From Planctomycetota bacterium (GTDB taxonomy: Bacteria; Planctomycetota; SZUA-567; H5-PLA8), in assembly GCA_038227875.1 (NCBI GenBank), contig JBBRPR010000092.1, positions 1 to 24,548 of the forward strand: DNA of 24,548 nucleotides. The letters run 5' to 3'. The notes below the pieces were generated by a model that was not told the DNA's origin, did no database searches, and was given only the letters and a program-made list of their open reading frames with translations. The first letter of the stretch is position 1. Every line of letters begins with the position of its first letter. Shown piece after piece: positions 7,296 through 23,530 of the stretch. The position numbers were made by a program, and so were the translations under genes.

Positions 7296-7760
7296 TCAGG
7301 CACTCGCCGACGTACGAAGTACGCGGACATTAGTGCGGATGGTCCAACCCGGAAAACCCAAACCGTCGTTCGTGGCCATCGGCAGAGTGGCGCTGACACC
7401 CCACTGCTCTAAGTAGAGCGGCGCGAGCCACGTGCTGAGATCGGCGCGGTCGATCAGTTTCCAGAGCTTCAGCGCGAGATCGCGCACGGGCTTGCCTGAG
7501 AAATCCTTCTTGCCGAAAATCTGCGCGTCCGCGACGAACGTGCCGCCCGAGAATTGACGACAGCCAAAATCAGGCGCGCCCGACACGTCACCGACGACAA
7601 TGTAGGGCGTCGCCATATTGTCTGGGACAGTGTGCTCGTTAGAGAAAATCGCAGGCGCATTGCCCGTGCCGAAATCGAACTGCGAGAGTCCTGCTCGAAT
7701 ATCTATCGCGAGTTGCGCGGAACTCGTGGCGATCAATTTGTAAAGCGCCTGAGAGATCAC
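7296..7760 (-). CDS. Tail terminator/completion protein (DUF3168-like)
   Basis: 154 aa; ALYKLI...VPDNMATPYIVVGD motif; lies just before the tube gene. Confidence 0.78.
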   Translation of the reverse strand: MISQALYKLIATSSAQLAIDIRAGLSQFDFGTGNAPAIFSNEHTVPDNMATPYIVVGDVSGAPDFGCRQFSGGTFVADAQIFGKKDFSGKPVRDLALKLWKLIDRADLSTWLAPLYLEQWGVSATLPMATNDGLGFPGWTIRTNVRVLRTSASA

Positions 7761-8260
7761 GAGACAGCACCTCCCAGCGGAATGTTTTCAAAGACCTTGG
7801 CGAAGCGCGCGCGGCAGTTGTCCAGGGCGGGCCGCATAAACGGCCGCGCTGGAATGTGGACGCTGGAACCCACGGCCTTCCAGATGCCAAGATTCATCCC
7901 GAGCCACATTCGCATTTTCGCGGTCACGCGGATCAGCCCGCCGAATTCATGAATTCGGCCGTAAGGCGCGGTTGTGGCCGGGCCAACAACCCAGCTGCCG
8001 TCGGGCTGCCGAGCGGCTTGAATCGAGCCACGAAGATTTCCGGAGCGCAAATGCGGCGGCATGCCGGTTTCACTGGGCGTGTATTTGATTTCCCTCTTGC
8101 CGCTGGAGGTAACCGGAGTCGCGCCGCCTTTGGAAAGCAGGCGCTTGGCTTCAGCCTCGACCATGAGCGCGCACTTGCCGAGTCGCTCAGTGACGCCCTT
8201 TTTCAGGTGATCAGCGATTTCATCTGTGTTGAGGTAGACTCGCGCCTTCATGTCGATCAT
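7757..8260 (-). CDS. HK97 gp10-like / virion morphogenesis neck protein
   Basis: RSGNLRGSI, APYGRIHEFGG and IPARPFMRPAL motifs. Confidence 0.88.
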   Translation of the reverse strand: MIDMKARVYLNTDEIADHLKKGVTERLGKCALMVEAEAKRLLSKGGATPVTSSGKREIKYTPSETGMPPHLRSGNLRGSIQAARQPDGSWVVGPATTAPYGRIHEFGGLIRVTAKMRMWLGMNLGIWKAVGSSVHIPARPFMRPALDNCRARFAKVFENIPLGGAVS

Positions 8261-8267
8261 GAACTAG

Positions 8268-8277
8268 ATAGATACGC
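8268..8277 (-). promoter_or_regulatory. GCGTATCTAT motif copy 3 (putative late promoter element)
   Basis: Exact 10-mer in a 30-nt intergenic gap, 7 nt before the ATG at 8260; identical copies at 12607 and 17559. Confidence 0.7.
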
Positions 8278-8290
8278 ATGGGGCGGGGAG

Positions 8291-8596
8291 TTACGGCGAG
8301 ACCGGCCGATCAATGCGGGTGAGATTCACTTCGCGTTTGGTCGTGTCCAGGACGCGGTTGGCATCGATCACGCGATAGAAGGTTTCTGTCGAAGTGTCTT
8401 CGGGAATGATGCCGACGATATCATTGATCTTCACGTCCTCGTAAAGCTCAACGATCATCGTGATCTGCGTTTTGTTTGCTTCCAAGATGCCAAACAAAAC
8501 CGTCGCAGTGCCGAGCGTCTCGGAAAAGCCGCCGTCGCCGTCAGGCACGCGGGTCGGCCGGTAGCGGTTAAAGGGATAGGGAAGTGGCATCTTCAA
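8291..8596 (-). CDS. Head closure / head-tail adaptor (SPP1 gp16-like)
   Basis: About 100 aa; RPTRVPDGDGGFSET motif; follows the connector gene; the start may be ATG at 8590. Confidence 0.78.
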   Translation of the reverse strand: MKMPLPYPFNRYRPTRVPDGDGGFSETLGTATVLFGILEANKTQITMIVELYEDVKINDIVGIIPEDTSTETFYRVIDANRVLDTTKREVNLTRIDRPVSP

Positions 8597-9216
8597 GTCC
8601 TCGCTTTTGATTTCAAGGCGTAGGGCTGAATCATCTTAGCGATGTCGCTATCCACGAACGCGCCGAACTGGATTGACGCACCTTTCGCGCCGCTCGACAT
8701 CTCCGCGCCACGCGCGCGGTAGGCGCGAGTGACCAACGCCAGCGCGGCCTGCTTGAGCAGGGCCGGGGCCGTGGCATATCCGGCGGTGTAGTCGGCTCGG
8801 TAGCGTCCCATGCCGTCCATGAATCGCACCCAGTACGCCCAGCGGTTTTGCTGCATTGAAAGATCGTAGACCGTGGGCTGCAGCCACGGGACGCCGGTAC
8901 CAGGATCCGCGCGGACGATGCGCCCCTTGCCGATCAACGCCACCACAATGAGATCACCGGTAACGCGATCAATCACAGTGGGGTAGGTTTGGCCGGACTG
9001 CACCGTCAGAGCCGTCACAGGCCGACTAGAAGGGAAGAGGATGCCCATCCCGCCGTCGAGATCCTCTTCAACGGCCGAACTGCCGAATTTGATTCCTAAA
9101 TGGGTGGCGAGGAACTCTTCCGAGGCGTCGCACAGGATCTGGATTACGGCATCCTGCGCCGTGTGCCCTACCATTAAATAAGCCTTTGCCGTGGCCAGAT
9201 CGATGATTGTGCTCAT
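8593..9216 (-). CDS. Head-tail connector protein (HK97 gp6 / phiE125 gp8-like)
   Basis: IDLATAKAYL...QDAVIQILCDASEEFL and YTAGYATAPALLKQAALALV motifs. Confidence 0.9.
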   Translation of the reverse strand: MSTIIDLATAKAYLMVGHTAQDAVIQILCDASEEFLATHLGIKFGSSAVEEDLDGGMGILFPSSRPVTALTVQSGQTYPTVIDRVTGDLIVVALIGKGRIVRADPGTGVPWLQPTVYDLSMQQNRWAYWVRFMDGMGRYRADYTAGYATAPALLKQAALALVTRAYRARGAEMSSGAKGASIQFGAFVDSDIAKMIQPYALKSKART

Positions 9217-9415: not shown

Positions 9416-10270
9416 TCAGTTGGTTTCGACCGTCATGGCGTAACAGAGAATGTCGTTCGCGGCCGTGCCCGATTGACCGCTTACCTTAATAGTAATGGCT
9501 CCCGTCTCGGTTTCTGCACCCGCTGCCGAGTAGTCCGTGATGTTGACGGTATCGTGTACCATCTTACCAAGCACCTGCTGCGTACTTGCGCCGGTGCGGA
9601 TCACGGTCAGTTCGGCGTGCCAGTTTTTGTTCGAATCGGTCAGTACCCCGGAGGTAATGACCTCCGAACCGAAGTAGAGCTTGATCGTCTTGTTATTTCC
9701 GGTTGTCGCGCAATGGCCCCACGCATGGATTTTCAGCACCTGGTTGGCGGAAGTGAGCGTGTTGGCGGGCAGTGCATACGTGAAAAGCACGTCTTCGCTG
9801 GTATCCGTGTTCGCCGCGCCGGTCGCGCTGGACTGTGCGCTGAGCACGCCATTGGATTTCCCGGTAAGCACGACGTCGCAGATATCCCCGTCGCTGGTCG
9901 TAGCGTTGAGCGCGATGCCCAGGCGTCGAGTAGCGGCAGTTGCAGTGATCTTGCCGACGGTATCGGGATAGACGTTCGCGCCCGCCGTGATCGCGCCGCT
10001 GGCCGTCAGGGAAAATACAGGCCGAAAGAGCAGCACGGTTACGCCGCCGCCGGATGCCGTGGTTTGCAGCGCACGCCCAATCGCTTCGTCGGCAGTGCTC
10101 GCCTGGGCTACCGAGTTCGCGCCGGAAACCTTGACCAGATTATTTGCCGTGATGGCACCGGACGCGGTGAAGCTCCGGCTATTTTCGGCGTCGCCAGCGA
10201 AGAGCGACGGAATAAAAACGAGCATGGCAGCGAGCAGTAGGCTCGCCAGAATGTTGTTTCGAGTCTTCAT
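9416..10270 (-). CDS. Capsid decoration/cement protein (DUF2190-like) with N-terminal signal peptide and C-terminal beta-sandwich domain
   Basis: Directly after the MCP; SFTASGAITANNLVKV...AIGRAL...LTASGAITAGANVY...LGIALNA...DGDICDVVL pattern; GGGAGG RBS. Confidence 0.8.
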   Translation of the reverse strand: MKTRNNILASLLLAAMLVFIPSLFAGDAENSRSFTASGAITANNLVKVSGANSVAQASTADEAIGRALQTTASGGGVTVLLFRPVFSLTASGAITAGANVYPDTVGKITATAATRRLGIALNATTSDGDICDVVLTGKSNGVLSAQSSATGAANTDTSEDVLFTYALPANTLTSANQVLKIHAWGHCATTGNNKTIKLYFGSEVITSGVLTDSNKNWHAELTVIRTGASTQQVLGKMVHDTVNITDYSAAGAETETGAITIKVSGQSGTAANDILCYAMTVETN

Positions 10271-10301: not shown

Positions 10302-10331
10302 AAAAAGCGAGGGGCGGCAATCGCCCCTCGC
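10302..10331 (-). terminator. Rho-independent terminator after the major capsid gene
   Basis: 10-bp perfect stem GCGAGGGGCG/CGCCCCTCGC with a 5-nt loop, followed by TTTTT on the minus strand. Confidence 0.85.
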
Positions 10332-10360: not shown

Positions 10361-11803
10361 TTAGGCAGCCAGCTGCGCGAACGCGCGGAGCTCAACCGGC
10401 TTGCCGCCGACCTGAATGAACATCACGTAGACCATCACGTTCTGTTCGATCTTTCGTTCGGCGCTGCGGGCCATGATGATTTCCTGCTCGACCGGCGCGA
10501 CGTACGACGCGAAGTTTCCGAACAGCACGTCACCCTGAACGCCCAGAGCCGGGAGACGCTGCGTCGGCACCACGGGGTAACCGAGGATCGTGCCGAGGTT
10601 CGCGCCCTGACCTGCACCGGAAGTCAGCGGCACAAACAGCGGGCGATTCTGGGTGTCCTTCTGGAGCTTCACGTCCTGCAGCGCCTTGTCCTGGATCGCA
10701 AACACCGCACCCGGCCGCAACTGCGGAGCGAGAGCGTGCTCCAGATTGACGAAGTCGTCGTACTTGACGTGCGCGCTCGTCGTGCGCGCAACCGTGTTCG
10801 CGAAGCCGATGATGCCGGTCGGCCGCGTGGTTCCGTTGCCGTTGATCACGGCGCGGTCGATCTTTCCCATCAGCGAGCGGCGGAACAAATTGTCGATCAG
10901 CGATTCGATGGGAATCGTCGAACGGTTGACCAGCTGGCGGGAGAGTTCGGTGCGCGTACCGAGTTCGAACGTCGGGATGGACTGCTGTTTGAACTTCGCT
11001 TCGGTGCCGTTGATTTCCGCACCTTCGGCGGTCCAGTACGACGCCGCGTAACCATCTTCGGCGAATTCATCTGCCGAATCTTCCGCACCCGGAGCCGCCT
11101 GCACCAATTGCGGCCAGAGGATCGTGCCGTAGCTGCACGGAACTTTGTAGCAGAGCGGCCAGAGCGCGGGCGCTTCGGACGGATACTGCAGGAGGTTCTT
11201 CATGAAGTCGGCCTGGAACAAATTGGCCTCTCCCGCCGATCCGCCAGACGACATCGGCAGCGCCTTGCCCGCGTAACCCGCGCGCGAACCGCCGTTCAGG
11301 AAGGATGAGTAGTCGGACTTTCCGCCGAAGAAAGCTTCGGGCAGAATCTGCATTGCGACGATCTTGGGAACCGCGACGGCACCTTCGATATTGCCTTCGC
11401 TTTCCATCTTCCAAGAGCCCTTCGGCGCGAGCAGATCGCGGGCGTTGCCGCCGAAGCTATCCAAGGTCTTACCCTTGAAGTAGTCGCTGAAAATAATGTA
11501 GTGATCTCGCGCTTCGTTGTCGTGATTGCGCGCCTGCGCGGGCGTCTTGGTGGCGAGCGTCCTTCCCTGCACCGTAACGAGATCGTCGATGCCGGAGAGT
11601 TGCTTGCGCCGGTTGGCGTGTTTCTTAGCCTCGTCCAAATCGGCGTTCAGCTTGTCGTACTCGGCGACCTTGCCGCGATATTCGGCGAGCGCATCGGTCT
11701 TGCCTTTTTCGTCGGTGGCCTTCTCGATCTTTTCCGACGCCGTTTCCATTTCGACTAACAGACCCTCCATCTTGCCCTTCAAGAGTTTGAGGTCGAGCTG
11801 CAT
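10361..11803 (-). CDS. Major capsid protein, HK97 family (480 aa, with coiled-coil delta/scaffold domain)
   Basis: Start reassigned to ATG 11803 (GGAG RBS; MQLDLKLLK...); WTAEGAEI, DRAVINGNGTTRPTGII, KDTQNRPLF, TILGYPVV and VLFGNF motifs. Confidence 0.95.
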   Translation of the reverse strand: MQLDLKLLKGKMEGLLVEMETASEKIEKATDEKGKTDALAEYRGKVAEYDKLNADLDEAKKHANRRKQLSGIDDLVTVQGRTLATKTPAQARNHDNEARDHYIIFSDYFKGKTLDSFGGNARDLLAPKGSWKMESEGNIEGAVAVPKIVAMQILPEAFFGGKSDYSSFLNGGSRAGYAGKALPMSSGGSAGEANLFQADFMKNLLQYPSEAPALWPLCYKVPCSYGTILWPQLVQAAPGAEDSADEFAEDGYAASYWTAEGAEINGTEAKFKQQSIPTFELGTRTELSRQLVNRSTIPIESLIDNLFRRSLMGKIDRAVINGNGTTRPTGIIGFANTVARTTSAHVKYDDFVNLEHALAPQLRPGAVFAIQDKALQDVKLQKDTQNRPLFVPLTSGAGQGANLGTILGYPVVPTQRLPALGVQGDVLFGNFASYVAPVEQEIIMARSAERKIEQNVMVYVMFIQVGGKPVELRAFAQLAA

Positions 11804-11834
11804 GGTTGAGTTCTCCAAAATTGGTTTCGAAAAT

Positions 11835-12563
11835 TTAGGCGTCGAGCAGAGAAATTTCTGCGCGGCGCAAAGCAATCTCCCGCTGAATGAGAGGCAATGC
11901 GGACGGCTGCAATGCGGGCGCGGCGGGCGTCTCAGTCTTTCCTGCGACGATGCCTGCGGCTTCGCTTTTGCCGGTGCTTTGCGCGGACTGTGCGGAGTCG
12001 ATTGTTGGTGAGTCTTCGGTCTTTGCGGCGAGTATGGCTGCCTGCGGATTGGCGGGGCGTACCGTGACGGTGACCTCGCAGAGCTCGCATTCCTGATGAA
12101 CAAGGACGTTGTCCGGCCCTTTCGGCATCGCCGAATTGGAGTAATCCCAGCGGACCGGTTTATATCCAACGCTCAAAAGGTTGACGTGCCCTTCGATCAC
12201 GAGCGTCCGGATTTCCTGCGCCAGTTCAACGCTGGAAAGTTCGGCATGAATCCAGAGACCAAAATCGTCTTCCTTGGCCTCTGTGATCGTACCGATACAG
12301 TCGAGCGCATCGCCGCCGTTGCAGAAATGCCGGACCATCAACTTCACCACGCCACGCGGAACGTTGATGCCAATCGAGCGCGTGAAACATCCACGCGTCA
12401 TGATTTCACCTTGCCCGTCGACGTTATTCCACACCGCCGCGTAGCCTTCGATCCAACCGCTCTTTCCACTGGCCGCGTCGTCAGTCTTGGCGCGGAGCCT
12501 GGATTCGGTGGGATGCATTACGCGGCGTGCGTGCCGGTCGACGCCGTTCCGTATTGGAGCCAT
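11835..12563 (-). CDS. Prohead maturation protease, HK97 family
   Basis: IEGYAAVWNNVD, EDDFGLWIHAEL, LSVGY and LCEVTVTVRPANPQA motifs; AGGAGG RBS. Confidence 0.95.
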   Translation of the reverse strand: MAPIRNGVDRHARRVMHPTESRLRAKTDDAASGKSGWIEGYAAVWNNVDGQGEIMTRGCFTRSIGINVPRGVVKLMVRHFCNGGDALDCIGTITEAKEDDFGLWIHAELSSVELAQEIRTLVIEGHVNLLSVGYKPVRWDYSNSAMPKGPDNVLVHQECELCEVTVTVRPANPQAAILAAKTEDSPTIDSAQSAQSTGKSEAAGIVAGKTETPAAPALQPSALPLIQREIALRRAEISLLDA

Positions 12564-12606: not shown

Positions 12607-12616
12607 ATAGATACGC
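12607..12616 (-). promoter_or_regulatory. GCGTATCTAT motif copy 2 (putative late promoter element)
   Basis: Exact 10-mer in the gap upstream of the protease and capsid genes. Confidence 0.7.
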
Positions 12617-12628
12617 AGCCAACGCCGA

Positions 12629-13465
12629 TCAGGCGCTTTCCTCGAAGATCGGCACGATGGTGCAGCGGCAATTGGGGTGCAGCGGCGGATGCAGGACGTC
12701 GAAGCCCTTCGCGCCGGCCGGGATCTTCAAATTGATTTCGTCGATGGAAAGTTTGTCGCCAGAGCTAAAGAACGGCTCGCCGGTCTCGATACGCTTGCCG
12801 TTCATTTCAGCGCAGAACGGGCAGCGCACGTCATCGTCTGCCGTGAGCCATTCGACGATGGTCACGCCGGCATCTTCATAACGCTGCAGCGCGCCTTCGT
12901 TGTAGCTCCAGATCGCGCCGGTGTGCGCGAGCATACTGGCACGCGCTTCGATCTGCGTCAGGCCCGCCTGGAGAATCTCCTTCGCAATGTCGCGCGGCGA
13001 CTGGCCATCTTCAGCGGCTGCTTTGAAAATGTTCTCCAGCCGTGTCGCGCTGGTTTGCGCGCCGCCCTCTGCCGTGGTCTTGATCCAACGATCAATGCGC
13101 GAGACGTCGGCCTTCGTGAAAAAGTTTTTGGCGTCGGCGACCGTCAACGAAGATTTCCCGCGGTACTGAGCATCGTCGGCATTTTTGCCGCGCGTGGCGT
13201 GGCCGACTTCCTGTTCGGCGAGTTCCCAGCCGTGCTTGACCATACCCTTGATCATCGAATTCTGAACGCGCGTGAAATCCTGCGACCAGTGTTTCTTCAT
13301 CGCGGCAGAAACAACGCGTGACGACGAATGCGCGTACTCGCGGACCTGTCGCTGCAGCGCGCCAAGAAACATCGAGCGCAGGCGCGCGTAGTTCTTGTCG
13401 GCGTAAGCCGCGCGCATCAATGCCGCCCGGACGCGGCGCGCTTTTATTTTCTCAGCGACAGACAT
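12629..13465 (-). CDS. Head morphogenesis protein (SPP1 gp7 / Mu gpF-like)
   Basis: EWLTADDDVRCPFCAEMNG and HPPLHPNCRCTIVP motifs. Confidence 0.93.
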   Translation of the reverse strand: MSVAEKIKARRVRAALMRAAYADKNYARLRSMFLGALQRQVREYAHSSSRVVSAAMKKHWSQDFTRVQNSMIKGMVKHGWELAEQEVGHATRGKNADDAQYRGKSSLTVADAKNFFTKADVSRIDRWIKTTAEGGAQTSATRLENIFKAAAEDGQSPRDIAKEILQAGLTQIEARASMLAHTGAIWSYNEGALQRYEDAGVTIVEWLTADDDVRCPFCAEMNGKRIETGEPFFSSGDKLSIDEINLKIPAGAKGFDVLHPPLHPNCRCTIVPIFEESA

Positions 13466-13468
13466 GGT

Positions 13469-14941
13469 TTATTGCTTCGCGTTGTCGGCCAGTTTTTTGA
13501 GCTGCTCTTCCGTCGCAATTTTTGTATTGCCAACCTTTTGAGGATCGTCGAGCTTCGGCTGATCTGGCTGCCCATCGTCTTTCGGCGGTTCGTCTTGAGC
13601 GTCGAGCGACGACGTATAGCCCATCGGCAGAAGAAATTGCGTACCGTCCGCCCCATCGATCGGTTTCAGTCCGGCGATCTCGCGCGCTTCGTTCTTGCTG
13701 GCGAGATTGTTCGTGTAGAGCTTCACCGCGCGTTCGATTTGTTTATCTTCGTCGTCGCGCAAACCGCGCACGTCGCTGGTGTCGTGATAGATCTTCAGTC
13801 GCGTATCGCCTTCGTCGCGCAACAATCCGCGCGTGAGACCGCCGTCCAGCATCTTCCAGCGACCAGCCATGGAGTGATAAAACGCCTTCATCGCGGCTTC
13901 GTAGTTTGAGTACGTACCGTTCTCCAAGCCACTACGCAACCCGACGATGATGGGCGGCACATCGAACGCGGAGCAGATGCGCGTTTCGGAAAGATTGGCG
14001 ACGCCGGGCCAGTCCAAATCTTTAAGTGGCGCCTGCGTCTCAATCGTCGCGCCTTCGCCGTCGAGAAACAGCGGCCGTCCGCGACGGCCCTTGCCAAGCC
14101 CGTCCAAAATAACAGCGCGGACTTCGTCCTTTTGATCCGGAGACCAGCCCTCTGGTTGCTTTAAAATCATTCCGGGAGTGCGTGCGTTGGCGAGCATTTC
14201 CACGATGTAATCCTGCCGCTCGGTGTCGGTATGGACCTCGCGGATCGCGGCCTGCAGCGGGCCGAGCCCAAGCGTGGGATTCGACGGGTCCACGTGGATC
14301 TGCCGGATCATGTCCTCGCGCAGGACGGGAAGCCAATCCTTGTTTGCGCCCTGGTACACGAGAAAGTGCGATAGCTTTCCGTTCGGATCGCGAGCTTCCC
14401 TCACCATCGACGTGGGCATCGGCCAGAGCTCGCCGATCTGGCCCACGCCGTTGCGCCACTTCCAGGCGTACGTGCGGCCGGTCAATTCGAGGTGCGAGAT
14501 GTAGTGCGTCAGAAATTCGCCGTAGGACATTTCGGGGTTGGGATCGGCGAGCAGTGAATTGAGATAATGGTTTTCCTGATCGACCCAGCCCTTCGGCGTG
14601 TCGCGCCCGATCCGCAGCGGCGCTTCCTGCGCCGTATTGCAGATTTTCCGAACGCATGAATAGACAATGATCGCTTTGCGATAAATGCTTTCCAACTCAG
14701 TCGAGTTTGCCTTGCCGAAAATTTCGTCGGCTCCGATCCACTGCGGATTGCCGTCGAGAATATCCCAGCCGCCGCTGGTACGGGGATCGTCGGCGAGAGA
14801 CTTGCCGCGCAGCGTGGCGGCGCGAAAGAGATCGAATGTGCGGTCGCTGCCGCCGACGAAAATCCGGGTCTTGCCTTCGACGCGGCGAAACTCAATGCTC
14901 GATGCATTTGGATTGAAAAACCGTTTCACTGTTTCGAACAT
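13469..14941 (-). CDS. Portal protein, HK97 family
   Basis: VYSCVRKI, LLADPNPEMS, LELTGRTY, ELWPM and ICSAFDVPPIIVG...TYSNYE motifs. Confidence 0.95.
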   Translation of the reverse strand: MFETVKRFFNPNASSIEFRRVEGKTRIFVGGSDRTFDLFRAATLRGKSLADDPRTSGGWDILDGNPQWIGADEIFGKANSTELESIYRKAIIVYSCVRKICNTAQEAPLRIGRDTPKGWVDQENHYLNSLLADPNPEMSYGEFLTHYISHLELTGRTYAWKWRNGVGQIGELWPMPTSMVREARDPNGKLSHFLVYQGANKDWLPVLREDMIRQIHVDPSNPTLGLGPLQAAIREVHTDTERQDYIVEMLANARTPGMILKQPEGWSPDQKDEVRAVILDGLGKGRRGRPLFLDGEGATIETQAPLKDLDWPGVANLSETRICSAFDVPPIIVGLRSGLENGTYSNYEAAMKAFYHSMAGRWKMLDGGLTRGLLRDEGDTRLKIYHDTSDVRGLRDDEDKQIERAVKLYTNNLASKNEAREIAGLKPIDGADGTQFLLPMGYTSSLDAQDEPPKDDGQPDQPKLDDPQKVGNTKIATEEQLKKLADNAKQ

Positions 14942-14950
14942 TGAACCTCC

Positions 14951-16426
14951 TTAGCGCGAGAGACCCATGCGGCGACCCGCGCTGTTGAGCTCTTCGGCAC
15001 CGATCACGAAACTGTCGACCTGGTCATCGTGCTTGCCTCGCGGAAAAGCCGAGACCTCGGCAAGCCACGCATCGTTCCACGCGCCGCGAACGAGAAAGAC
15101 ATTCTTGTTTTCGAACGCCGGCTCGACCAGCGAGGCGCGCGCGACCTTGTCGAGTTGAGGTGTGGAATTGCGGACGATGTACTTTCCGCGCAGGCGGTCT
15201 CGGATTCGAATGTACGTATCTTTGTAACCGGCGACGGTTTCTATTTTGACGGTGCAGCGCGGACCATCAGCGACCGCAGCCGCCTCGATTTGTTTGTCGC
15301 GTTCGGTCGCCGTCCACTGTCCGCGAATCACGTCGACGACGAAATAATTCATCCCGTCGTATGCGACCTTTGTTCCAACCGTGTAGTCGGGATCGTCCTT
15401 CACGCGCTCTTTTTCAGAGCTCGCTAAATCCCACGAGCGCACGTACCGCAGTTTGCGCGCGACAACCTTCGGATCGGACTCCTCGCCAACAAGGACAGTC
15501 ATCGTTTCCGGAATAGCGTCGATGATCTCAGCCAAATCACTGCGCAGGAATTGTCCAGTGCGCGGTTGTGGATTGCCCTGGTACAGCGACTGCCATGCAT
15601 ACGGGCCAACGATGGCTTTCTGTCCGCGATAATACTTGGCGTCGAAGCGCTCCGGGAAAAGAAACGTCCCGTCTTCGGCTTCGGCGGGGAAGTTGATGTG
15701 CTTGAACCGGGGAAACTCCGGATCCTTTTCCATCGCCTCAAAGATTCGGCCCACGAGGTCATCAGGATGCCATCGCGTGGCGACCACGATAACAGCGTGG
15801 CCTGGAGCGCCGCGCGTGATGATATCGCTACGAAAACTATCCCACGTGCTCTGGCGAATCGTTTCGCTTTCGGCCTCCGCGCGATTTTTGCAGTAGTCAT
15901 CAATGACGATGATGCTGCCGCCGCGCCCGGTCATTGCGCCGCCGATGCCGACGGCGACCATACCGCCACGATGGCCTTCGATCCTCCACGCGCCGATCTG
16001 GTTTCGGTCATCGCTCAGGCGCAGGCCGAATTTGCCTCCGGCTTCCGCAAAGCACTTGCGAACGTCATGCGCCAGATCGTGGGAGAGGTCCGCGCCGTAT
16101 GTCACCAAAATAACTTCATGGTCCGGATTGCGCGACATGTGCCAGGCGGGATAGCGGCGTGAACAAATGTCCGACTTGCCGTGGCGCGGCGGCATCGTGA
16201 CGATGATGTAATGGCGACCGCCCGCCTCCACGATTTCAGAGGCGTGCTGGAGCTCCGCGATCAATGCTTTGGTGTGTTTGCCAAACAGATAGTCGAGCGA
16301 TGGCGGATAGGTCCGAAAGAATTTATCAAAGCTGAGCGTACAGCGCTTGCCCTTCTCGGCATCGGCTGTCGCACGGTCGAACGTCTCGATCAGCGGATCG
16401 GATTTGGGTTTTGGTTTGCGCGCCAT
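14951..16426 (-). CDS. terL: Terminase large subunit
   Basis: Walker A MPPRHGKS, Walker B IIVIDD, TRWHPDDL, nuclease motifs SWDLA and HDDQVDS. Confidence 0.96.
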   Translation of the reverse strand: MARKPKPKSDPLIETFDRATADAEKGKRCTLSFDKFFRTYPPSLDYLFGKHTKALIAELQHASEIVEAGGRHYIIVTMPPRHGKSDICSRRYPAWHMSRNPDHEVILVTYGADLSHDLAHDVRKCFAEAGGKFGLRLSDDRNQIGAWRIEGHRGGMVAVGIGGAMTGRGGSIIVIDDYCKNRAEAESETIRQSTWDSFRSDIITRGAPGHAVIVVATRWHPDDLVGRIFEAMEKDPEFPRFKHINFPAEAEDGTFLFPERFDAKYYRGQKAIVGPYAWQSLYQGNPQPRTGQFLRSDLAEIIDAIPETMTVLVGEESDPKVVARKLRYVRSWDLASSEKERVKDDPDYTVGTKVAYDGMNYFVVDVIRGQWTATERDKQIEAAAVADGPRCTVKIETVAGYKDTYIRIRDRLRGKYIVRNSTPQLDKVARASLVEPAFENKNVFLVRGAWNDAWLAEVSAFPRGKHDDQVDSFVIGAEELNSAGRRMGLSR

Positions 16427-16429
16427 AAA

Positions 16430-17032
16430 TCAGCTTGCCGCTGCAACCGGCTCCAAGTCATTGGAAAGGGTCTCGTTTTCGCGGATGTAGCGCTCGCGTA
16501 CGCGCGCGCGCAAAACCTTCGCCTTCTCAGGCCCGAACAGCGCGAGCGTCTCTTCAACAAAGATCGTGATGAGTAGGGAAGCCTGCCTCGAATCGGCAAC
16601 CGCCGGGATGGTTTGAGAGCGGATCTTCTCTACGATTTTCGCCACGGCCTCGAAGGCGCGCACTGCAGAGCCCAAGTCCTTGTCGGGATTCTTGCGATGC
16701 TCTTCAAGCACCTGCTCGAAATGCTTGCTGCATTCGGCAAGCAGACGGTCGTAAGACCGCAGCTGGCCAGTCAACGTGCCTTCCTGCTGAGCCATCGAGC
16801 GCGCGCGTTCGGCGTCGAGAATCGCCTGCATCTGTTGCGTGCGCACTTGCTCGGTGAGCTCCGCTACCAGTTCGGTGAATTTTGTTTTTTGAAGCAAGCG
16901 GCGCAGCGTCGATTCGGCGATGCCGCGAAAAGATTCGTACTCCGACTGCAACGCCTTGACCGCCGCCGAGATATTCATCCCGGAGCGCGCCAGCTGGTAA
17001 GCAATAACGCGGACGTCGCTCTCGGTGTACAA
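16430..17032 (-). CDS. Probable terminase small subunit
   Basis: 200 aa; N-terminal HTH-like segment (NISAAVKAL...IAESTLRRLL), helical remainder; directly upstream of TerL; TTG start with AAGGAG RBS. Confidence 0.65.
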   Translation of the reverse strand: MYTESDVRVIAYQLARSGMNISAAVKALQSEYESFRGIAESTLRRLLQKTKFTELVAELTEQVRTQQMQAILDAERARSMAQQEGTLTGQLRSYDRLLAECSKHFEQVLEEHRKNPDKDLGSAVRAFEAVAKIVEKIRSQTIPAVADSRQASLLITIFVEETLALFGPEKAKVLRARVRERYIRENETLSNDLEPVAAAS

Positions 17033-17041
17033 TCTTGCTCC

Positions 17042-17515
17042 TTAGTGCATGAGGCCGTGAACTGCGGCAGTGACTCCGCCGCCGAGCGCCGCGCCTGCCG
17101 CAACAAGTCCACTCAGCTTGGCTAGACCAATTCCAGTTTCCTTTTCTTCCTGAGAGAGATCCTTGACGTCGGCTTCGATTTTCTGGAAGCGACGCTCCCC
17201 CTCGGCGAGGCGCTGACTCACTGCGGACAACTCCCGACCGTGCTCCTGCAGTGTTTCGTTTTGCCGTTCAATGTCATCTTTCACTTCGTGAATTTCTTCT
17301 TTGAGCTCCTTGCGCGACGCCTCCACCTGACGCGAGATGGTTTCCATTTTCGTGTCGATGTGGCGCTGGAGTTCGAGGGAGCTCTGAGCGACGTCGCGCT
17401 GAACCTTGGCGACGTCGCGCTGAACGGCGATGGAAAATTGGGTGGTAAGCTCTCGAATGAATTCCTGATCGTGCAGGGAGAGCTTCGACTTTTCCTGCGG
17501 ATCAGAGTCAGGCAT
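17042..17515 (-). CDS. Coiled-coil protein with C-terminal hydrophobic helix (holin/lysis-associated-like)
   Basis: Start reassigned to ATG 17515 (MPDSDPQEK); long heptad region; C-terminal LSGLVAAGAALGGGVTAAV. Confidence 0.6.
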   Translation of the reverse strand: MPDSDPQEKSKLSLHDQEFIRELTTQFSIAVQRDVAKVQRDVAQSSLELQRHIDTKMETISRQVEASRKELKEEIHEVKDDIERQNETLQEHGRELSAVSQRLAEGERRFQKIEADVKDLSQEEKETGIGLAKLSGLVAAGAALGGGVTAAVHGLMH

Positions 17516-17558: not shown

Positions 17559-17568
17559 ATAGATACGC
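17559..17568 (-). promoter_or_regulatory. GCGTATCTAT motif copy 1 (putative late promoter element)
   Basis: Exact 10-mer in the AT-rich gap at the boundary between the early/middle and late gene blocks. Confidence 0.7.
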
Positions 17569-17582
17569 CGGGTTTTATGGGA

Positions 17583-18111
17583 CTATGAACTTGCATCAGA
17601 ATAACAAGATGCCAACCACGATGAAAGCCCGAGGGGAATCTCCGCGCGCGCGGCGCGCTGCTTTGACGAAAATGATTCCTTCGGCCGGTATTGAACCGTA
17701 GGTAATAAGCCGGGAACGCCATCGCCCCAAAGATAGAACGGACCAAATTTCATCGTCGGGTTTCCCAGCCAGCGCCGCGCACCGCGAACGTTCTCCATAA
17801 CAAGCGGCGCTTTCAACTTCGCTGCAATCCAGCGACAGCGTTCAATCAGTGCCAGCGATGGAGGCGGTGGATTTCTCGCTCGTGTCCACGGCATATCATG
17901 GCGCGAAAATTCATCGCAGGGTGGAGAGGCACAAACAATTTTTACCCCCCCTTATTACAGTGGGATCGTACTGTAGTAGATCACAAACAATGAGCTCGCC
18001 GGGATAGCCGAGATCGACAACGTCGACGCCGATGCAGCGGAAGCCGAGCGGCAGGAATCCCTTCGTCCAGCCGCCCTTTCCGCAGCACAAATCGAGCATA
18101 ACCGGGCGCAC
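17583..18111 (-). pseudogene. Compact C5-cytosine DNA methyltransferase-like gene split by a frameshift in a G7 tract
   Basis: Motif I LDLCCGKGG in ORF 17911..18111; removing one G from G7 (17945-17951) gives IRGVKIVCASPPCDEFS (motif IV) fused to ORF 17583..17894, which has motif VI MENV. Confidence 0.85.
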
Positions 18112-18564
18112 TTACTCGCAGCCCTTTTCGTCGAATTTCGACGCAGGCACGTATCCATTGGGACAATAGAAACCCCATTGCCGGGATTTCGGTCCGGTGA
18201 TTACTAGCGTCCAGCACGGCCGTTTCGTGCCATCTGGATTGCTGCGTAACTCGACGCGATGTTGATAGTCGGCGCGATGGAATTCGATTGAGCCAGCGCG
18301 GCGCAGCCGTCCCTCCAGCCAGCCGCTCGCATAGTTCGGTGTCAGATCCAGGTACATACCCTTGAGCATCAGCGAAAGAAACCACCACGGATGATCGTGC
18401 GGCGCGCGATCATCGTCATCCCGCAGGAATTTGTGGATGAAGATCTTGAAGAAGCGATTCTGCGGGATCACGTACCAGCGCAGCATATACGGATTGGCTT
18501 CGCCGCCAATTCGTTCGTGCGGTTGACCAGAAATCAGAATTCGGAACCATTGCCAAATCGTCAT
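18112..18564 (-). CDS. Cupin-fold protein (phage cysteine-dioxygenase-like family)
   Basis: HKFLRDDDDRAPHDHPWWFLSLML, HRVEL and WTLVITGP..RQWGF motifs. Confidence 0.8.
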   Translation of the reverse strand: MTIWQWFRILISGQPHERIGGEANPYMLRWYVIPQNRFFKIFIHKFLRDDDDRAPHDHPWWFLSLMLKGMYLDLTPNYASGWLEGRLRRAGSIEFHRADYQHRVELRSNPDGTKRPCWTLVITGPKSRQWGFYCPNGYVPASKFDEKGCE

Positions 18565-18785
18565 GACTCATGCCCTCCGTTCTCTTTGAATTTCTGATTG
18601 AACAATTTGGCCCAGTCGATTGCTTTAGGATCAAGCGGGGGCGCTGGTTTCGGAATGCGCTTATCCCACGCCGTCATCGAAATGATGCTTTGGGAATGCG
18701 CGCAGATCTCGATTCGGTCAGGCTTACCGCGCGCGCTGATGATCCGCACCGTCGAGTTCTTTGTTCTGATTCGTTTGACGCGCAT
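18561..18785 (-). CDS. Hypothetical basic protein (74 aa)
   Basis: TGATG overlap with the upstream gene and ATGA overlap with the downstream gene. Confidence 0.6.
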   Translation of the reverse strand: MRVKRIRTKNSTVRIISARGKPDRIEICAHSQSIISMTAWDKRIPKPAPPLDPKAIDWAKLFNQKFKENGGHES

Positions 18786-19144
18786 CAGCAGCCCCCAATC
18801 GAATCGTTCTCCAGCATGCACGCTAACTCCGGATCACAGACGCTGTAGAATCCTTCGCGATCAGGAAACGTGTCCGCCGCGTCGACTAAAATCCGAACGC
18901 GCAGCCGTTCGGCTGCGTTGCTGATCAGATAGTTCGATGGCCACATGTCCGATGCGATCAGCAGCACATCCAGAACTTCCGAGCGATTGCATCCTCGCGC
19001 TCTGCGGCGGTCCGCGATCTCCACGAGTTCCCGCGTGAATTGCTTGTCACCGAACGCGTCATGAAACTTTCGCAGCGCCTGCCGGATAATTTCGATACCC
19101 GTCTCGCGCGCGTTTTCGAGTGCCTCCTCCAAAAAACAATTCAT
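18785..19144 (-). CDS. Hypothetical helical protein (119 aa), weak sigma region-4-like pattern
   Basis: Start reassigned to ATG 19144 (TAATG overlap with the sigma-2 gene); function inferred by eye only. Confidence 0.55.
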   Translation of the reverse strand: MNCFLEEALENARETGIEIIRQALRKFHDAFGDKQFTRELVEIADRRRARGCNRSEVLDVLLIASDMWPSNYLISNAAERLRVRILVDAADTFPDREGFYSVCDPELACMLENDSIGGC

Positions 19145-19488
19145 TAAGCGATCCTTTCCAAGTAGTCGATGAGGGGAAGACTTTCTGTCGTAGCTTCCGC
19201 GCTGCAGCGCATGTTCTTGCGCTGGAGATCGGCAAGCGCGCAGCACGCCGCGAAGTACGCGTAGTTCTGTAGCGGGAACTTTCCGCCGTGTTTAAACCGC
19301 GCCAGCCTGCGCACGGTGCCGAGCGTGACCTCTTGCTTAAAATCCTCCCACCCCATCTGTAGCGGCGGACGGCCGCGATGCCTGCGGATGATGGCGAGAT
19401 TCACAACGGGCTTGACCACGTCCGCGATTTCCGACTGCGTCGCGGCGCGGCGCAGCGGATCGCCGACGTCGAACAAATAACCATCCAT
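19144..19488 (-). CDS. Sigma-70 region-2-only protein (114 aa)
   Basis: KPVVNLAIIRR...WEDFKQEVTLGTVRRLARF...FPLQNYAYFAACCALADLQRK follows the region 2.1-2.4 pattern (EDLxQE..., F.TYA....AI.D.LRK); no region 4 HTH. Confidence 0.75.
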   Translation of the reverse strand: MDGYLFDVGDPLRRAATQSEIADVVKPVVNLAIIRRHRGRPPLQMGWEDFKQEVTLGTVRRLARFKHGGKFPLQNYAYFAACCALADLQRKNMRCSAEATTESLPLIDYLERIA

Positions 19489-19491
19489 GAT

Positions 19492-20112
19492 TTACATGCC
19501 CCAAAGCGTGCGCTGTTCGGACGCGACTTTCTGCGCGCCTTTAGCGGACCGCTGTTGCTTCAGCGGAGTCCATTCGGATTTGCGGTAGCCACCGGCGCGC
19601 GGCTCCTCCTGGATCAGCAGCCGATAGGCTTCGACCAGCGGAAGCGTTTCGACGGTGTAGTGCGTGGATTGTTCGCGGTAGCGCTCGAATTTCGGCGCGT
19701 TATGCATCATCCAATTGACCCACTGGTCGGGATTCTTTTTGGTCTTACTCAGGACGTCGCGCAGGCGCGCGTGGATCTTGGGCGGCTTGCCATTAAGCAT
19801 GTCGCGGAGCGCATTGAGCTCAAAGTCTCGGCAGGCCGTTAAGGTCGAGATTACGCGCCCGAGCACGCCAGACGCCCAGAGGTACGGCGATTCGATTTCG
19901 ACCGTCGTGTTCGGCCAGAAGTATTTCGGATCGCGGACTTCGCCCGGTCCAACGCAACCGCACGTCAAACACCAGCCGTCCGCGTCGCGCTCGGCGGGCC
20001 GGTGACAGTACACGCAGTTGGGCTGCAGCGCCGTGATCGTGCCATCGGCAACCATGCGCTTGAACTGCGCGTGGACGGCCTGCATCTGCCGCTTCCGCTG
20101 GAGTTCATTCAT
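19492..20112 (-). CDS. GemA (Mu gp16/DUF1018)-like protein with inserted zinc ribbon
   Basis: Start reassigned to ATG 20112 (GGAGG RBS, ATGA overlap); RKRQMQAVHAQFKRM and TLTACRDFELNALRDML motifs; CVYC-x11-CLTC. Confidence 0.5.
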   Translation of the reverse strand: MNELQRKRQMQAVHAQFKRMVADGTITALQPNCVYCHRPAERDADGWCLTCGCVGPGEVRDPKYFWPNTTVEIESPYLWASGVLGRVISTLTACRDFELNALRDMLNGKPPKIHARLRDVLSKTKKNPDQWVNWMMHNAPKFERYREQSTHYTVETLPLVEAYRLLIQEEPRAGGYRKSEWTPLKQQRSAKGAQKVASEQRTLWGM

Positions 20113-20477
20113 CGCTTTTCCTCCACTGTGGAGGGGGCGGGCGTAAGCGCGGTAGGCGCGGGCGGCAACCAGACTCCGCTGCCGTCCCACGGAAATTCGA
20201 GCACGAATTTACTAAGGTCAGACGGCTGACCGGGAGGGCCGAGAGAGCCCTGTATCATACCTTTAAAAAGCGCCGTCTCATCGGTGATCTTATTGCGTTC
20301 GCAATAGTGCCCGTCGTTCTCGAAAATCCATGCGTCAGCTCCATCAAGTCTGCCGATCACGCCATTCAAATCACCTATCTCATCAATAAATTTACTCAAA
20401 CGCTTGGGGTTCGAAATGATGATGAGGCGATAGAACCAGCGCGTATTTCCTCCGTGGTATTTCAACAGTTCCGACAT
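20109..20477 (-). CDS. Hypothetical protein (122 aa)
   Basis: ATG 20477 with strong GGAGGAGG RBS; ATGA overlap downstream. Confidence 0.7.
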   Translation of the reverse strand: MSELLKYHGGNTRWFYRLIIISNPKRLSKFIDEIGDLNGVIGRLDGADAWIFENDGHYCERNKITDETALFKGMIQGSLGPPGQPSDLSKFVLEFPWDGSGVWLPPAPTALTPAPSTVEEKR

Positions 20478-21203: not shown

Positions 21204-21640
21204 GCCGCTTCCTCCTGTTCTTCCTCGATTTCCTCTTCCGCGATGGCCTGACCCGGCGCGAGCACTTGGAGTTCGAGCTTGCCGGGAACGCCCGTGCTGC
21301 AGGCCGCGAGTTCCTTGTCGCTGGGCGTCGCGGCAAGCAGTTGATTGAGCTTTCGCGTTTCGGGTTTGCGCGGGCAGTAGAGGTCCAGCTGCGCGGGCCG
21401 GAGGAGCTTGGCAAGCAGTTTCACAACCCATTTGATGCCGGGCTTAGATACGAGTTGTGCCAGCGCGCCAGTGGCCGTGCGGAAGGCCGTGGCGTTACGG
21501 AACTGTAGTTCGTCTTTGATGTCGCCGCAGAGTTCGCGGTATTCGTTCGCGACGGGCCGGATCTGAATCAGCCGGTCGATTTTCTGCGCCAACTCCTGAT
21601 CGTTGAGCGGAGTGCGTTGCTTCTTGGGTCCCTTCGCCAT
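21200..21640 (-). CDS. Hypothetical protein, possibly a remote Mu Gam-like DNA end-binding protein
   Basis: ATG 21640 with AGGAG RBS; N-terminal helix followed by a short beta region (FRTATG); acidic tail; the Gam similarity is architectural only. Confidence 0.45.
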   Translation of the reverse strand: MAKGPKKQRTPLNDQELAQKIDRLIQIRPVANEYRELCGDIKDELQFRNATAFRTATGALAQLVSKPGIKWVVKLLAKLLRPAQLDLYCPRKPETRKLNQLLAATPSDKELAACSTGVPGKLELQVLAPGQAIAEEEIEEEQEEAA

Positions 21641-21668: not shown

Positions 21669-21905
21669 TTAAGAAACCGAGCGCGACGCGCGGTTGAAAG
21701 TTCCAATCACCTGATTGATGCTCAGCTTCTGCTGCAGTCGCTCGTAAAAATTTACGGACGGCCGGACTTCTTCGGCGCAGATCTCGCGATGGTCCAGATC
21801 GCAGTCCTTGCACAGAACCATCGCGCAGCGCATGCAATGGATCAGCTGCGATGTCTCGACTGTTTCACGGCAGAGGTGGCACTCTTGCTTTATTTCCGGG
21901 CTCAT
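21669..21905 (-). CDS. Small double zinc-finger (B-box/AN1-like) protein
   Basis: C-x2-C-x11-C-x2-C-x4-C-x2-C-x3-H-x3-C; ATGA overlap. Confidence 0.7.
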   Translation of the reverse strand: MSPEIKQECHLCRETVETSQLIHCMRCAMVLCKDCDLDHREICAEEVRPSVNFYERLQQKLSINQVIGTFNRASRSVS

Positions 21906-22156
21906 TTGGTCGCTTGCGCTCCCGTTGCGGCCGCGTCCGGCGCGCGCACAGCGCGCGCGTCTTCCGTGAGATTGAAAAGCGTTTTGGTTTCGTCGTGTTC
22001 CATCAGCGCCTTCTTGAGTTCACCGGGAGTGTCTTCGCGGATTTCCGAGACGTGGCGGATGATCTTCGCGGCAGTCCCGATCAGTTCGACTTCGATACGA
22101 TTTTGCGAGTGCAGCTTGACGATCTTCACCGGTGCCCCGAGTTGATTGCGGATCAT
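21902..22156 (-). CDS. Hypothetical protein (84 aa)
   Basis: GGAGGAGG RBS; ATGA overlap downstream. Confidence 0.7.
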   Translation of the reverse strand: MIRNQLGAPVKIVKLHSQNRIEVELIGTAAKIIRHVSEIREDTPGELKKALMEHDETKTLFNLTEDARAVRAPDAAATGAQATK

Positions 22157-22212
22157 GCGTCCTCCTCCATTTCAAAAGTTCGATGGCGGCGCTTCAGCGC
22201 CGCGCTCAAAAT

Positions 22213-22725
22213 TCAGGCGACTGACGTTCCTTTCTTCTGGCTGTCGCGTGCGGCGGCGGCGGCAGCCGTGGCGACGGCGGCGCGCTGGCGTTGGGCGTCC
22301 AGTTCGGATGCGTGTTCGGTGCGCGCCGTAGCGGCTTCCTGTGGCGGTAGAACGCGGTCGAGCAGCTGGCTCACTGCGGATTCGTAGAGCGCTTTCTCTG
22401 CCCGGTTAAGTTCCTTCTTGCGACGGTGGTACGTCTCGCCGAAGGTCTCAACCACGCGCAGGAGTACTTCATTGTCCGGGCCGTTGACGATGTCGGATTT
22501 CTTTCCGTCGAGCAGCCATTCGGGCGTCGTGCGAAGGGCGTGCGCAACTTTGCCAATGGTCTCAATTGGACTGCGCTCGCCGGTTTCCCACGCCTGCACG
22601 CTCCGGACCTTTGCGCCGAGTTGCGCGGCTAAACAGGCGCGTGTGAGCATTAGCGTCTGGCGGGCAAGCATGATCCGTTTGCCGATCTCACGGCGCGCGG
22701 TTTTCTGTATCTCTCCACTGTCCAT
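22213..22725 (-). CDS. XRE-family (HTH_3) transcriptional regulator with C-terminal coiled coil
   Basis: IGKRIMLARQ...LAAQLG...SVQAWETGERSP...KVAHALRTTPEWLLDG. Confidence 0.92.
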   Translation of the reverse strand: MDSGEIQKTARREIGKRIMLARQTLMLTRACLAAQLGAKVRSVQAWETGERSPIETIGKVAHALRTTPEWLLDGKKSDIVNGPDNEVLLRVVETFGETYHRRKKELNRAEKALYESAVSQLLDRVLPPQEAATARTEHASELDAQRQRAAVATAAAAAARDSQKKGTSVA

Positions 22726-22870: not shown

Positions 22871-23530
22871 TCAGGCGAACTTCAGGGCCGGGCGTTCGAC
22901 GTCGTCGAGCAGCGTCGCTTCCTCTTCCTTCACCGGCTGGAATTTCATCGCGCTTTTGACGAAGCCGAACGACTTCGGGCCGTACTCGTAGGTCCGCCAT
23001 CGCGGCTTCAGTAATTCGTTTTCCTTCGGCCACACCGCGACGACGGTGCGCAGCTTGAAGTCGTAGGCGTGGACCTTCGTGATGACGACGATCAGGTGGA
23101 CGGGAATCTCCAGGCGGTAGGCGCAGTCGTCGGCCGCGCGGAAGGCCGTCTCCAGCCGCTCCGCAGGTACCGCGCCTGCGTGATCGAACGCGATACAAAC
23201 CGCGCGGCCTTTGCCGTGGCGCTTACTCAAAACGCTGATGAGATTCTTGAGGCCCTCTAGATACGAGTTGGCAGCGGTCCCGAAGCGCCGGGCTGATTCC
23301 TGCATGCCGGTGTAGAGCCCGCGCTTGGCCGTCTCGATCAGACAGAGCGCCGGCTTTGACGCGCTGGCCGTCTCGCCGGTAGAGAATCGCTCTTCGCTGC
23401 GGAGCGCCGTCGTCAGGCCCGCAAAGTTCGCGGACTGCATCACGACGTCCAGCTTCGCAGTTCCCGGCTCGCCGCCTTCGCGGCAGAGTTTGATCAACGC
23501 GCGCTGGCGTATGTCGAGTTCCATACTCAT
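22871..23530 (-). CDS. Degenerate AAA+ (MuB/ExeA/AAA_22-like) protein, probably catalytically inactive
   Basis: Walker A-like SANFAGLTTALR (Lys replaced by Leu), Walker B-like VCIAFDHAG (Glu replaced by His), sensor-1-like strand HLIVVIT at the expected spacing. Confidence 0.6.
   Translation of the reverse strand: MSMELDIRQRALIKLCREGGEPGTAKLDVVMQSANFAGLTTALRSEERFSTGETASASKPALCLIETAKRGLYTGMQESARRFGTAANSYLEGLKNLISVLSKRHGKGRAVCIAFDHAGAVPAERLETAFRAADDCAYRLEIPVHLIVVITKVHAYDFKLRTVVAVWPKENELLKPRWRTYEYGPKSFGFVKSAMKFQPVKEEEATLLDDVERPALKFA

Follow-up and report, generated by a model that had tools for sequence, protein, structure and literature searches.

The window analysed here is the whole of contig C92 (24,548 bp), which belongs to a 9.34-Mb Planctomycetota metagenome-assembled genome. 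It is a phage or prophage contig with nearly every gene on the minus strand, and its source is a temperate siphovirus-type phage of Planctomycetota. The subject of this work is P0001, a protein of 114 amino acids (aa) encoded at 19144-19488 (-), at the boundary between the early and the late genes, together with a short repeated sequence found in front of the late gene blocks. A gene for a 232-aa protein without Pfam or PHROG match (19492-20190, -) lies upstream of the P0001 gene. Downstream follow the gene of P0002, a 119-aa, all-helical orphan protein (18785-19144, -), an accessory cassette and then the packaging, head and tail genes. The P0001 start is located 3 nt past the stop of the 232-aa gene, and the P0001 stop and the P0002 ATG share base 19144 (TAATG on the minus strand); because of this spacing and this overlap the three genes appear to be translationally coupled. 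An earlier note on this DNA (the original prediction) had proposed that the two small open reading frames (ORFs) encode the two halves of a split sigma factor, and it gave their coordinates, their lengths and the overlap correctly.

P0001 and its family

When P0001 was run alone against Pfam, the match to Sigma70_r2 (PF04542) had an E value of 0.055 (13.7 bits), which is below the cut-off of 24. The assignment to sigma-70 region 2, made in the original prediction, was borne out by the relatives of the protein: all seven members of alignment A2 matched Sigma70_r2 (best E 5.4e-06), the member from locus L050 did so with an E value of 0.029, and PF04542 is a precomputed annotation of P0003, P0011 and P0012. 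Among Protein Data Bank (PDB) sequences, P0001 alone found one extracytoplasmic function (ECF) sigma factor (9isn_F, E 0.026), and the family profile found the same chain with E 0.0041 and SigA (8gzg_F) with E 0.0065. Phage sigma factors ranked top in BFVD, and in the ESM Atlas P0001 adjoins viral clusters of 114-119 aa, one of which is 41% Sigma70_r2.

The AlphaFold model of P0001, computed from a seven-sequence alignment, has a mean predicted local distance difference test (pLDDT) score of 77.3. Helices were predicted at residues 18-36, 47-64, 73-98 and 105-113, and residues 1-9 are disordered (pLDDT <50). According to a separate fold search, which had domain 2 of ECF sigmas among its best matches, this is the sigma-2 helical fold. 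Two residues, D49 and Q52, do not vary among the ten proteins of the family, and Y78 is kept in at least 90% of them. The two invariant residues align with D-L-I-Q-E, the core-binding segment of SigA (region 2.2), and the Y-A-Y-F of P0001 aligns with Y-A-T-W-W, the aromatic segment of SigA (region 2.3) that is active in DNA melting.

Beyond domain 2 the chain has only some 15 further residues, a linker and a tail. No Sigma70_r4 match was detected with Pfam, and none of the ten family members has a region 4, in agreement with the earlier statement that the protein stops without a region 4. P0001 gave no match to the Mor or helix-turn-helix (HTH) families of Pfam, and none to PHROGs at E<=0.1. 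A canonical ECF (group 4) sigma can be ruled out, there being no domain 4 in the same polypeptide. Judged by its sequence, P0001 is a complete stand-alone sigma-70 domain 2 of ECF-like type and not a truncated sigma factor.

Relatives were gathered by whole-genome searches and two profile searches. The resulting family of ten (P0001; P0003 from genome G012; P0004 and P0005 from G018; P0006; P0007; P0008; P0011 from G006; P0012; and the L050 protein) consists of proteins of 102-137 aa, and the nearest full-length sigma factor, found in a profile search of 5.8 billion clusters, is remote (E 0.0097). These observations show that the short length is a conserved state, and they dispose of the concern that the homologues might be full-length sigmas of which this copy is a truncated version. 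There was also no sign of an assembly-derived stop or indel at 19144, a further concern of the original prediction, because a 6109-nt contig of run X1, possibly the source sample itself, spans positions 18329-19700 with 0 differences from the window; runs X2-X4 cover parts of the window only, and none of them bridges 19144.

Matches of the P0001 type were present in 6 of 401 sampled Planctomycetota genomes, G000 included; the three weakest (E 1e-6 to 1e-5), which are putative, fall within frames of 217-383 aa. A word-indexed homologue search with P0001 alone returned only the query itself, scans of viral and metagenome contigs with P0001, A3 and P0008 found no relatives, and tblastn of P0001 against 50,697 phage records gave no match.

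Gene context was compared at five loci (the window, G012:C67, G018:C286, G006 and L050), the contigs of P0006, P0007, P0008 and P0012 lying outside the comparison. In G012, G018:C286 and L050 the sigma-2 gene is directly upstream of a block encoding a coiled-coil protein, a TerS-like protein and the large terminase (TerL). In G006 the sigma-2 gene is followed, with a 4-nt overlap, by the gene of a 104-aa XRE-type HTH/zinc-ribbon protein; the sigma-2 protein of G006, P0011, represents a divergent subfamily with the loop D-V-G-K in place of H-G-G-K.

In each of the five phage loci (window 19492-20190, L002:2140-2589, L011:2008-2454, L050:4874-5413 and L003:1844-2800), a gene of another family, which has no Pfam or PHROG match, is located one or two positions upstream of the sigma-2 gene. 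Its members share the segment ...Y-L-L-D-x-L-x-G-K-P-T-K-L-D.... The 232-aa protein of the window belongs to it with its C-terminal part and carries an additional N-terminal part with C-x-x-C ... C-x-x-C. The upstream genes had been described as GemA-like, a description that finds no support in Pfam: GemA (PF06252) had no match on the contig or in the upstream proteins.

One member of the sigma-2 family, P0004 (125 aa; L008 = G018:C41, 1435-1812, -), has neither of the terminal motifs described below. It adjoins a divergently oriented membrane protein with the metalloprotease motif H-E-I-G-H, apparently outside a phage structural context, and may represent a chromosomal use of a sigma-2-only protein.

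A repeated motif in front of the late blocks

When the minus-strand intergenic gaps of the window were listed, the same 10-mer, GCGTATCTAT, was found in three of them. The first copy (17559-17568, -) is in the 67-nt gap before the block of coiled-coil (XhlA-like), TerS-like, TerL and portal genes, the second (12607-12616, -) in the 65-nt gap before the prohead protease and major capsid block, and the third (8268-8277, -) stops 7 nt short of the ATG of the tail-completion/Neck1 gene (7757-8260, -), with which the tail block opens. All three exact copies are on the coding strand and all are intergenic. With one mismatch or fewer, the window contains 5 matches to GCGTATCTAT against 0.56 expected, a number reached in 0 of 100 shuffles. 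The whole 9.34-Mb genome has 6 exact copies, of which 3 are on this contig, and 17 copies of the reversed-pattern control.

Variants of the motif with one mismatch were also seen on the coding strand inside ORFs, namely CGTATCTAA at 5521-5529 (tape-measure gene) and again at 21444-21452, and CGTATCTAG at 23257-23265, the latter two in early genes. These may be weak sites or chance matches.

In the G012 genome 6 of the 11 copies of CGTATCTAT are on the 32.5-kb phage contig G012:C67, all on the coding strand. One is in the 36-nt gap between the sigma-2 and the coiled-coil gene, another ends 6 nt before the ATG of the protease, and two further copies are in gaps before genes; by a reading of the site contexts, about four of the six are in such gaps. 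In G018:C286 the related sequence CGTATCTAC was found where the sigma-2 gene ends, immediately ahead of the coiled-coil gene, and in L050 it is in the 192-nt gap at the corresponding place. A copy of the motif, with T or C as its last base, was thus found between the sigma-2 gene and the packaging block in G012, G018:C286 and L050 alike.

When 11 sites were aligned, only S-CGTATCTA-Y was conserved, which is asymmetric and 9 nt long, and nothing was conserved at -35 distance; the 11 sites were chosen by the motif itself, and the evidence consists in enrichment, strand and position. For an asymmetric sequence that the host chromosomes scarcely contain, a role as a host regulon site, as a Chi-like signal or as the operator of a dimer is unlikely. 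The asymmetry would be as expected for a -10 element read on one strand.

It could be argued that P0001 binds RNA polymerase (RNAP) and that another phage or host factor, such as an XRE-type HTH neighbour or a host ECF sigma, reads the motif, P0001 acting only with that partner. An XRE-type HTH gene adjoins the sigma-2 gene in three of the five loci (upstream and overlapping in G012, upstream in G018, downstream with the 4-nt overlap in G006), and the CGTA with which the motif begins, an ECF-type -10 core, speaks for such a reader. This adjacency is, however, not conserved, the sole HTH_3 protein of the window being encoded 2.7 kb upstream and that of L050 at the far end of the contig. Moreover, an asymmetric sequence of only 9 nt is unlike the operator of a dimeric HTH protein, and its near absence from the host chromosome argues against a host regulon. 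A separate reader of the motif seems unlikely.

Alternatively, P0001 could be a sigma decoy that occupies the beta-prime clamp helices and shuts off host sigma-dependent transcription without having a promoter specificity of its own. In favour of this reading, the core-binding residues are kept and domain 4 is absent, and competition makes alternative or split sigmas toxic when they are over-produced (Tn916 preprint, bioRxiv 10.64898/2026.10.01.756105). In contrast, a pure decoy would not need the Y-A-Y-F segment and the H-G-G-K loop, both of which are conserved. There is, moreover, a dedicated motif in front of every late block, and the gene is at a position at which phages keep their late activators. 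We consider a decoy quite unlikely.

A scan of the window for sigma-70-type promoters gave 3 sites against 5.0 expected, and a scan for terminators gave 20 against 21.1 expected. A strong terminator-like hairpin with a 10-bp stem, 9 G-C pairs and a T-run was observed at 10307-10331 (-), between the major capsid gene and the cement/scaffold-like gene. In the prophage on G006:C1, GGGAACCG occurs three times within a gap of 76 nt ahead of the portal-side genes (positions 9717-9792 in L016 and L017 joined, -), and this recalls the GGAAC of ECF-type -35 elements.

The adjacent gene P0002 and the other genes of the contig

In the original prediction P0002 was the partner of P0001 in a two-subunit split sigma, supplying a region-4-like or gp33-like function. 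The TAATG coupling is consistent with such a pair, and P0002 has the marks of a real gene: AAGGA is located about 9 nt upstream of its ATG, and of the six reading frames its own scores best for coding and has a coding-like GC1/2/3 pattern. The frame is also open over the 102 nt upstream of the ATG, where a programmed frameshift might conceivably fuse P0001 to P0002. There are also precedents in SigO-RsoA (PMC8103513), Tn916 Sig7-Sig8 (bioRxiv 10.64898/2026.10.01.756105) and T4 gp55-gp33.

The comparisons of P0002 with known proteins pointed in a different direction. In Pfam there was no HTH or sigma match at E<=1, Sigma70_r4 included, PHROGs gave none, the PDB sequences gave nothing better than E 0.6, and the ESM Atlas had no usable match. 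A model computed from the single sequence (mean pLDDT 71.5) shows one long helix and helical hairpins; it gave only generic helical-repeat matches, to TPR/HEAT-like and designed helical proteins, and no sigma-4 or HTH structure was in the top 50 of either Foldseek or VIA-align. The suggested likeness to region 4 was thus not upheld. An exhaustive phmmer search of 1.84 billion representatives returned P0002 itself and one spurious repeat match, and tblastn against the 50,697 phage records returned nothing. P0009 (891 aa), an animal Sushi-repeat protein in which a stretch of 22-24 residues was matched nine times, was rejected as a homologue.

The expectation that homologues would likewise be split and adjacent was not confirmed either: P0002 is absent from the G012:C67, G018:C286, L050 and G006 loci, of which the first three keep a sigma-2 protein of the same type together with the motif, G006 having the divergent subfamily. 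P0002 is situated in a cassette of lower GC (the segment 17.4-19.2 kb has a lower GC content than its surroundings) and beside broken genes, and, in common with the accessory genes around it, it fits the codon usage only weakly. We regard a split sigma made of P0001 and P0002 as most improbable. From the earlier proposal that a two-subunit or minimal sigma controls late transcription, the part that fits the evidence is the minimal sigma, with a sigma-2-only protein at the early/late boundary and a -10-like motif before the late blocks; the part that found no support is the 119-aa partner, an orphan without a sigma-4 signal that does not co-occur with the sigma-2 gene. An unrelated fold and a lack of co-occurrence are what the original prediction had itself named as grounds for its refutation.

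P0002 might also be the cognate anti-sigma of P0001 in an ECF-style coupled layout, which would be compatible with a sigma function of P0001 in late transcription. The 1-nt overlap in a common operon and the small, all-helical product would suit this role, but no anti-sigma domain was found in P0002 with Pfam at E<=1, the H-x3-C-x2-C motif is missing, and the gene is absent from all relatives, which makes an anti-sigma very unlikely. On the sequence evidence, P0002 is probably a real but lineage-specific accessory gene, part of a cassette whose insertion separated the sigma-2 gene from the late genes, and probably an unrelated orphan that is cotranscribed with P0001 by chance rather than its sigma-4 partner.

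The identities of the remaining genes were derived from Pfam and PHROGs scans of the window proteins. The rest of the accessory cassette (17583-18821, -), which ends short of the late promoter-like site, consists of an 86-aa ORF (18561-18821, -), a phrog_4786 'cysteine dioxygenase'-like protein of 150 aa (18112-18564, -) and two DNA-methyltransferase-like pieces that are out of frame with each other (17911-18111 and 17583-17894, -). The 66-aa methyltransferase-like piece has the S-adenosylmethionine (SAM)-binding-type motif D-L-C-C-G-K-G-G (phrog_363, E 2.2e-06) and the 103-aa piece includes M-E-N-V-R-G; the gene (17583-18111, -) appears to be split, because it is a frameshifted pseudogene or because of an error in the assembly. 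In contigs from runs X1 and X3 there are 31 additional letters between 18330 and 18329, inside the phrog_4786 gene, and the X1 contigs break there. This difference may be a strain variant or an artefact of k-mer length in assembly; the window version of the gene encodes an intact 150-aa protein with an end-to-end PHROG match.

The first late block (14951-17515, -) comprises the genes of a coiled-coil/transmembrane protein with weak XhlA-type matches (17042-17515, -), the TerS-like protein (16430-17032, -) and the large terminase (14951-16426, -). It is followed on the same strand by the portal (13469-14941), a Mu-F-like protein (12629-13465), the prohead protease (11835-12563), the capsid (10361-12169), a cement/scaffold-like protein (9416-10270), a head-tail adaptor (8593-9216), the tail-completion protein mentioned above, the major tail protein (6888-7280), the tape measure (4446-6173) and a tail fibre (1109-2323). 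At the other end of the window an HTH_3 regulator (22213-22725, -) precedes uncharacterised early genes. The adjoining 506 nt (21707-22212, -), a gap in the gene list, contain two or more short ORFs that the list lacks and that have good Shine-Dalgarno sites; one is cysteine-rich (C-x2-C ... C-x2-C ... C-x2-C).

A candidate late sigma and its relation to known systems

We consider it somewhat probable that P0001 is a minimal late sigma of the T4 gp55 type, using promoters that consist of a -10 element only. The P0001 gene would be expressed as the last part of the early/regulatory operon, with its translation coupled to that of the preceding gene, and the region-2.2-like helix of the protein, with D49 and Q52, would dock on the beta-prime clamp helices of the host RNAP core. 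The region-2.3/2.4-like loop and helix (F-K-H-G-G-K ... Y-A-Y-F) would read the -10-like S-CGTATCTA-Y, and this element, acting alone and without a -35 before the packaging, head and tail blocks, would allow three late transcription units to be switched on. The hydrophobic/acidic motifs at the ends of P0001 may serve to tether it to another protein; the most attractive candidate is the beta sliding clamp of the host, by analogy with T4 gp55 and Mu C.

Several observations weigh against this interpretation. P0001 and the motif are connected by correlation, and this comes from four related, non-independent phages. No gp33-like coactivator was identified on the contig, and a sigma without domain 4 normally needs help. 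Two of the six CGTATCTAT sites on G012:C67 are inside ORFs. The G006 prophage, which encodes the divergent P0011, is without the motif, and a search there for a repeated motif that could replace it found none that was convincing. Finally, to our knowledge TATCTA matches the known -10 consensuses poorly.

The suggestion of a tether comes from the termini of the family. After a divergent linker of 8-15 residues, 6 of the 10 members have a C-terminal tail of the [LYF]-P-L-[ILF] type, with the sequences L-P-L-I-D-Y-L-E-R-I-A (P0001), Y-P-L-F-D, Y-P-L-F-E-R-A, F-P-L-L-D-R-A and E-Y-P-L-L, and two further members have the tail R-P-D-L-V-Y-L. At the N-terminus, [LM]-F-[DG] aligns in 8 of the 10 members, and in four of the ten a Q is present four residues before the F. 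P0011 begins with M-T-Q-H-D-L-F and P0012 with M-F-Q-A-D-L-F; the N-terminus of P0001, D-G-Y-L-F-D, is without the Q. In a crude set of 8136 host ORFs, Q..[LM]F occurred 23 times and Q.[DES][LM]F twice within the first 20 residues, and the strict C-terminal pattern was present in 3 of the 8136; the latter two patterns were defined after the data had been seen.

For Mu C, QHDLF is reported as the N-terminal clamp-binding motif (QPDLF is also listed for MuC) and QL[SD]LF as the consensus, and Mu late transcription requires the beta clamp (PMC12867686). The short motifs at the two disordered ends of the P0001 family (Q-x-D-L-F and Y-P-L-F-D) resemble such sliding-clamp-binding motifs. Tethering of P0001 to the clamp is nevertheless a tentative proposal, for which we would put the chances at well below even.

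T4 gp55 needs gp33 and gp45 for full activity. In PMC7892883 and PMC2988020, gp55 is described as a sigma-R2 homology domain followed by a variable linker and a short hydrophobic/acidic C-terminal clamp-binding epitope; it contacts the clamp helices and the -10-like TATAAATA, and T4 late promoters are without a -35. P0001 has in common with it a sigma-R2-type domain without domain 4, a variable linker and a hydrophobic/acidic C-terminal segment; likewise, the candidate late promoters here are single -10-like elements with no -35, and the gene would be expressed before the late genes. In contrast to the five-helix body of gp55 with its helix-loop-helix extension, P0001 has 114 aa, and its family carries an N-terminal LF motif that has not been reported for gp55. 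The phage is of the temperate siphovirus type with a Planctomycetota host, the available 24.5 kb showed neither a gp33-like coactivator nor a phage clamp, and the motif is the GC-containing CGTATCTAT and not TATAAATA. The likeness of P0001 to gp55 is one of domain layout.

T4 gp55/gp33, SPO1 gp33/gp34, SigO-RsoA and Tn916 Sig7-Sig8 are known split or minimal sigmas (PMC8103513; bioRxiv 10.64898/2026.10.01.756105); RsoA and Sig8 are small proteins with the sigma-2 function only. P0001 resembles the small sigma-2-only subunit of Bacillus subtilis SigO-RsoA and of Sig7-Sig8. These systems, however, have an adjacent, co-conserved sigma-4 subunit, whereas no such subunit is adjacent or conserved here and the candidate promoters have no -35.

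Mu C and Mor are similar to P0001 in that their genes close the early/middle region, with the late genes following directly, and that their target promoters are without a -35. Mu C also shares beta-clamp-like terminal motifs with the P0001 family, the Q-H-D-L-F of P0011 being identical to the Mu C motif and the Q-A-D-L-F of P0012 similar. Mor and C differ in being HTH DNA-binding dimers that work with sigma-70, whereas P0001 is a sigma-2 domain with no Pfam Mor match. The best sequence and fold matches of P0001 are to ECF (group 4) sigmas (9isn_F; domain 2 of SigE, SigH, SigW, SigR and SigK), but these are defined by sigma-2 plus sigma-4, and domain 4 is absent from all ten members of the P0001 family.

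Sigma-2-only or sigma-4-only proteins are common in phage genomes according to a recent survey, which assigned no function, promoter or partner to them (bioRxiv 10.64898/2026.10.08.757525). The 'Domain2Only' phage proteins of that survey are single-domain sigma-2 proteins, as P0001 is. As P0001 scores below the Pfam cut-off, its family may be outside the survey set. No description of the P0001 family, of any Planctomycetota phage sigma or of the S-CGTATCTA-Y motif was found in the literature that was searched.

In its widest form, which we hold to be doubtful, the interpretation would be that a group of temperate Planctomycetota siphoviruses has its late-promoter specificity conferred entirely by one protein, a 114-residue sigma-2 domain with beta-clamp-binding motifs at either end. 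This factor would bring RNAP to 9-bp, -10-only S-CGTATCTA-Y promoters, some of them giving leaderless or near-leaderless mRNAs, and its tether to the host clamp, DnaN, would make late transcription dependent on replication. If true, this would be the third independent case after T4 gp55/gp33/gp45 and Mu C, with features of both, and the smallest sigma known.

Domain 4, or something that stands in for it, is generally regarded as a requirement for sigma function, and T4 gp55 has so far been the one well-studied exception without that domain. In PMC2988020 the gp55 mechanism is described as unique to T4-like phages. With the P0001 family, the question can be put to phages that are not related to T4 and whose host phylum has received little study; the family offers a tiny factor, a candidate promoter present in 3-6 copies per genome and candidate clamp-binding tails, and it corrects the first reading of this locus in that the adjacent gene, P0002, is probably not the missing half of a sigma. 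If the proposed role is true, late transcription from clamp-assisted, -10-only promoters would be a recurring strategy of phages, and the factor and its motif would constitute a very small orthogonal promoter/sigma pair.

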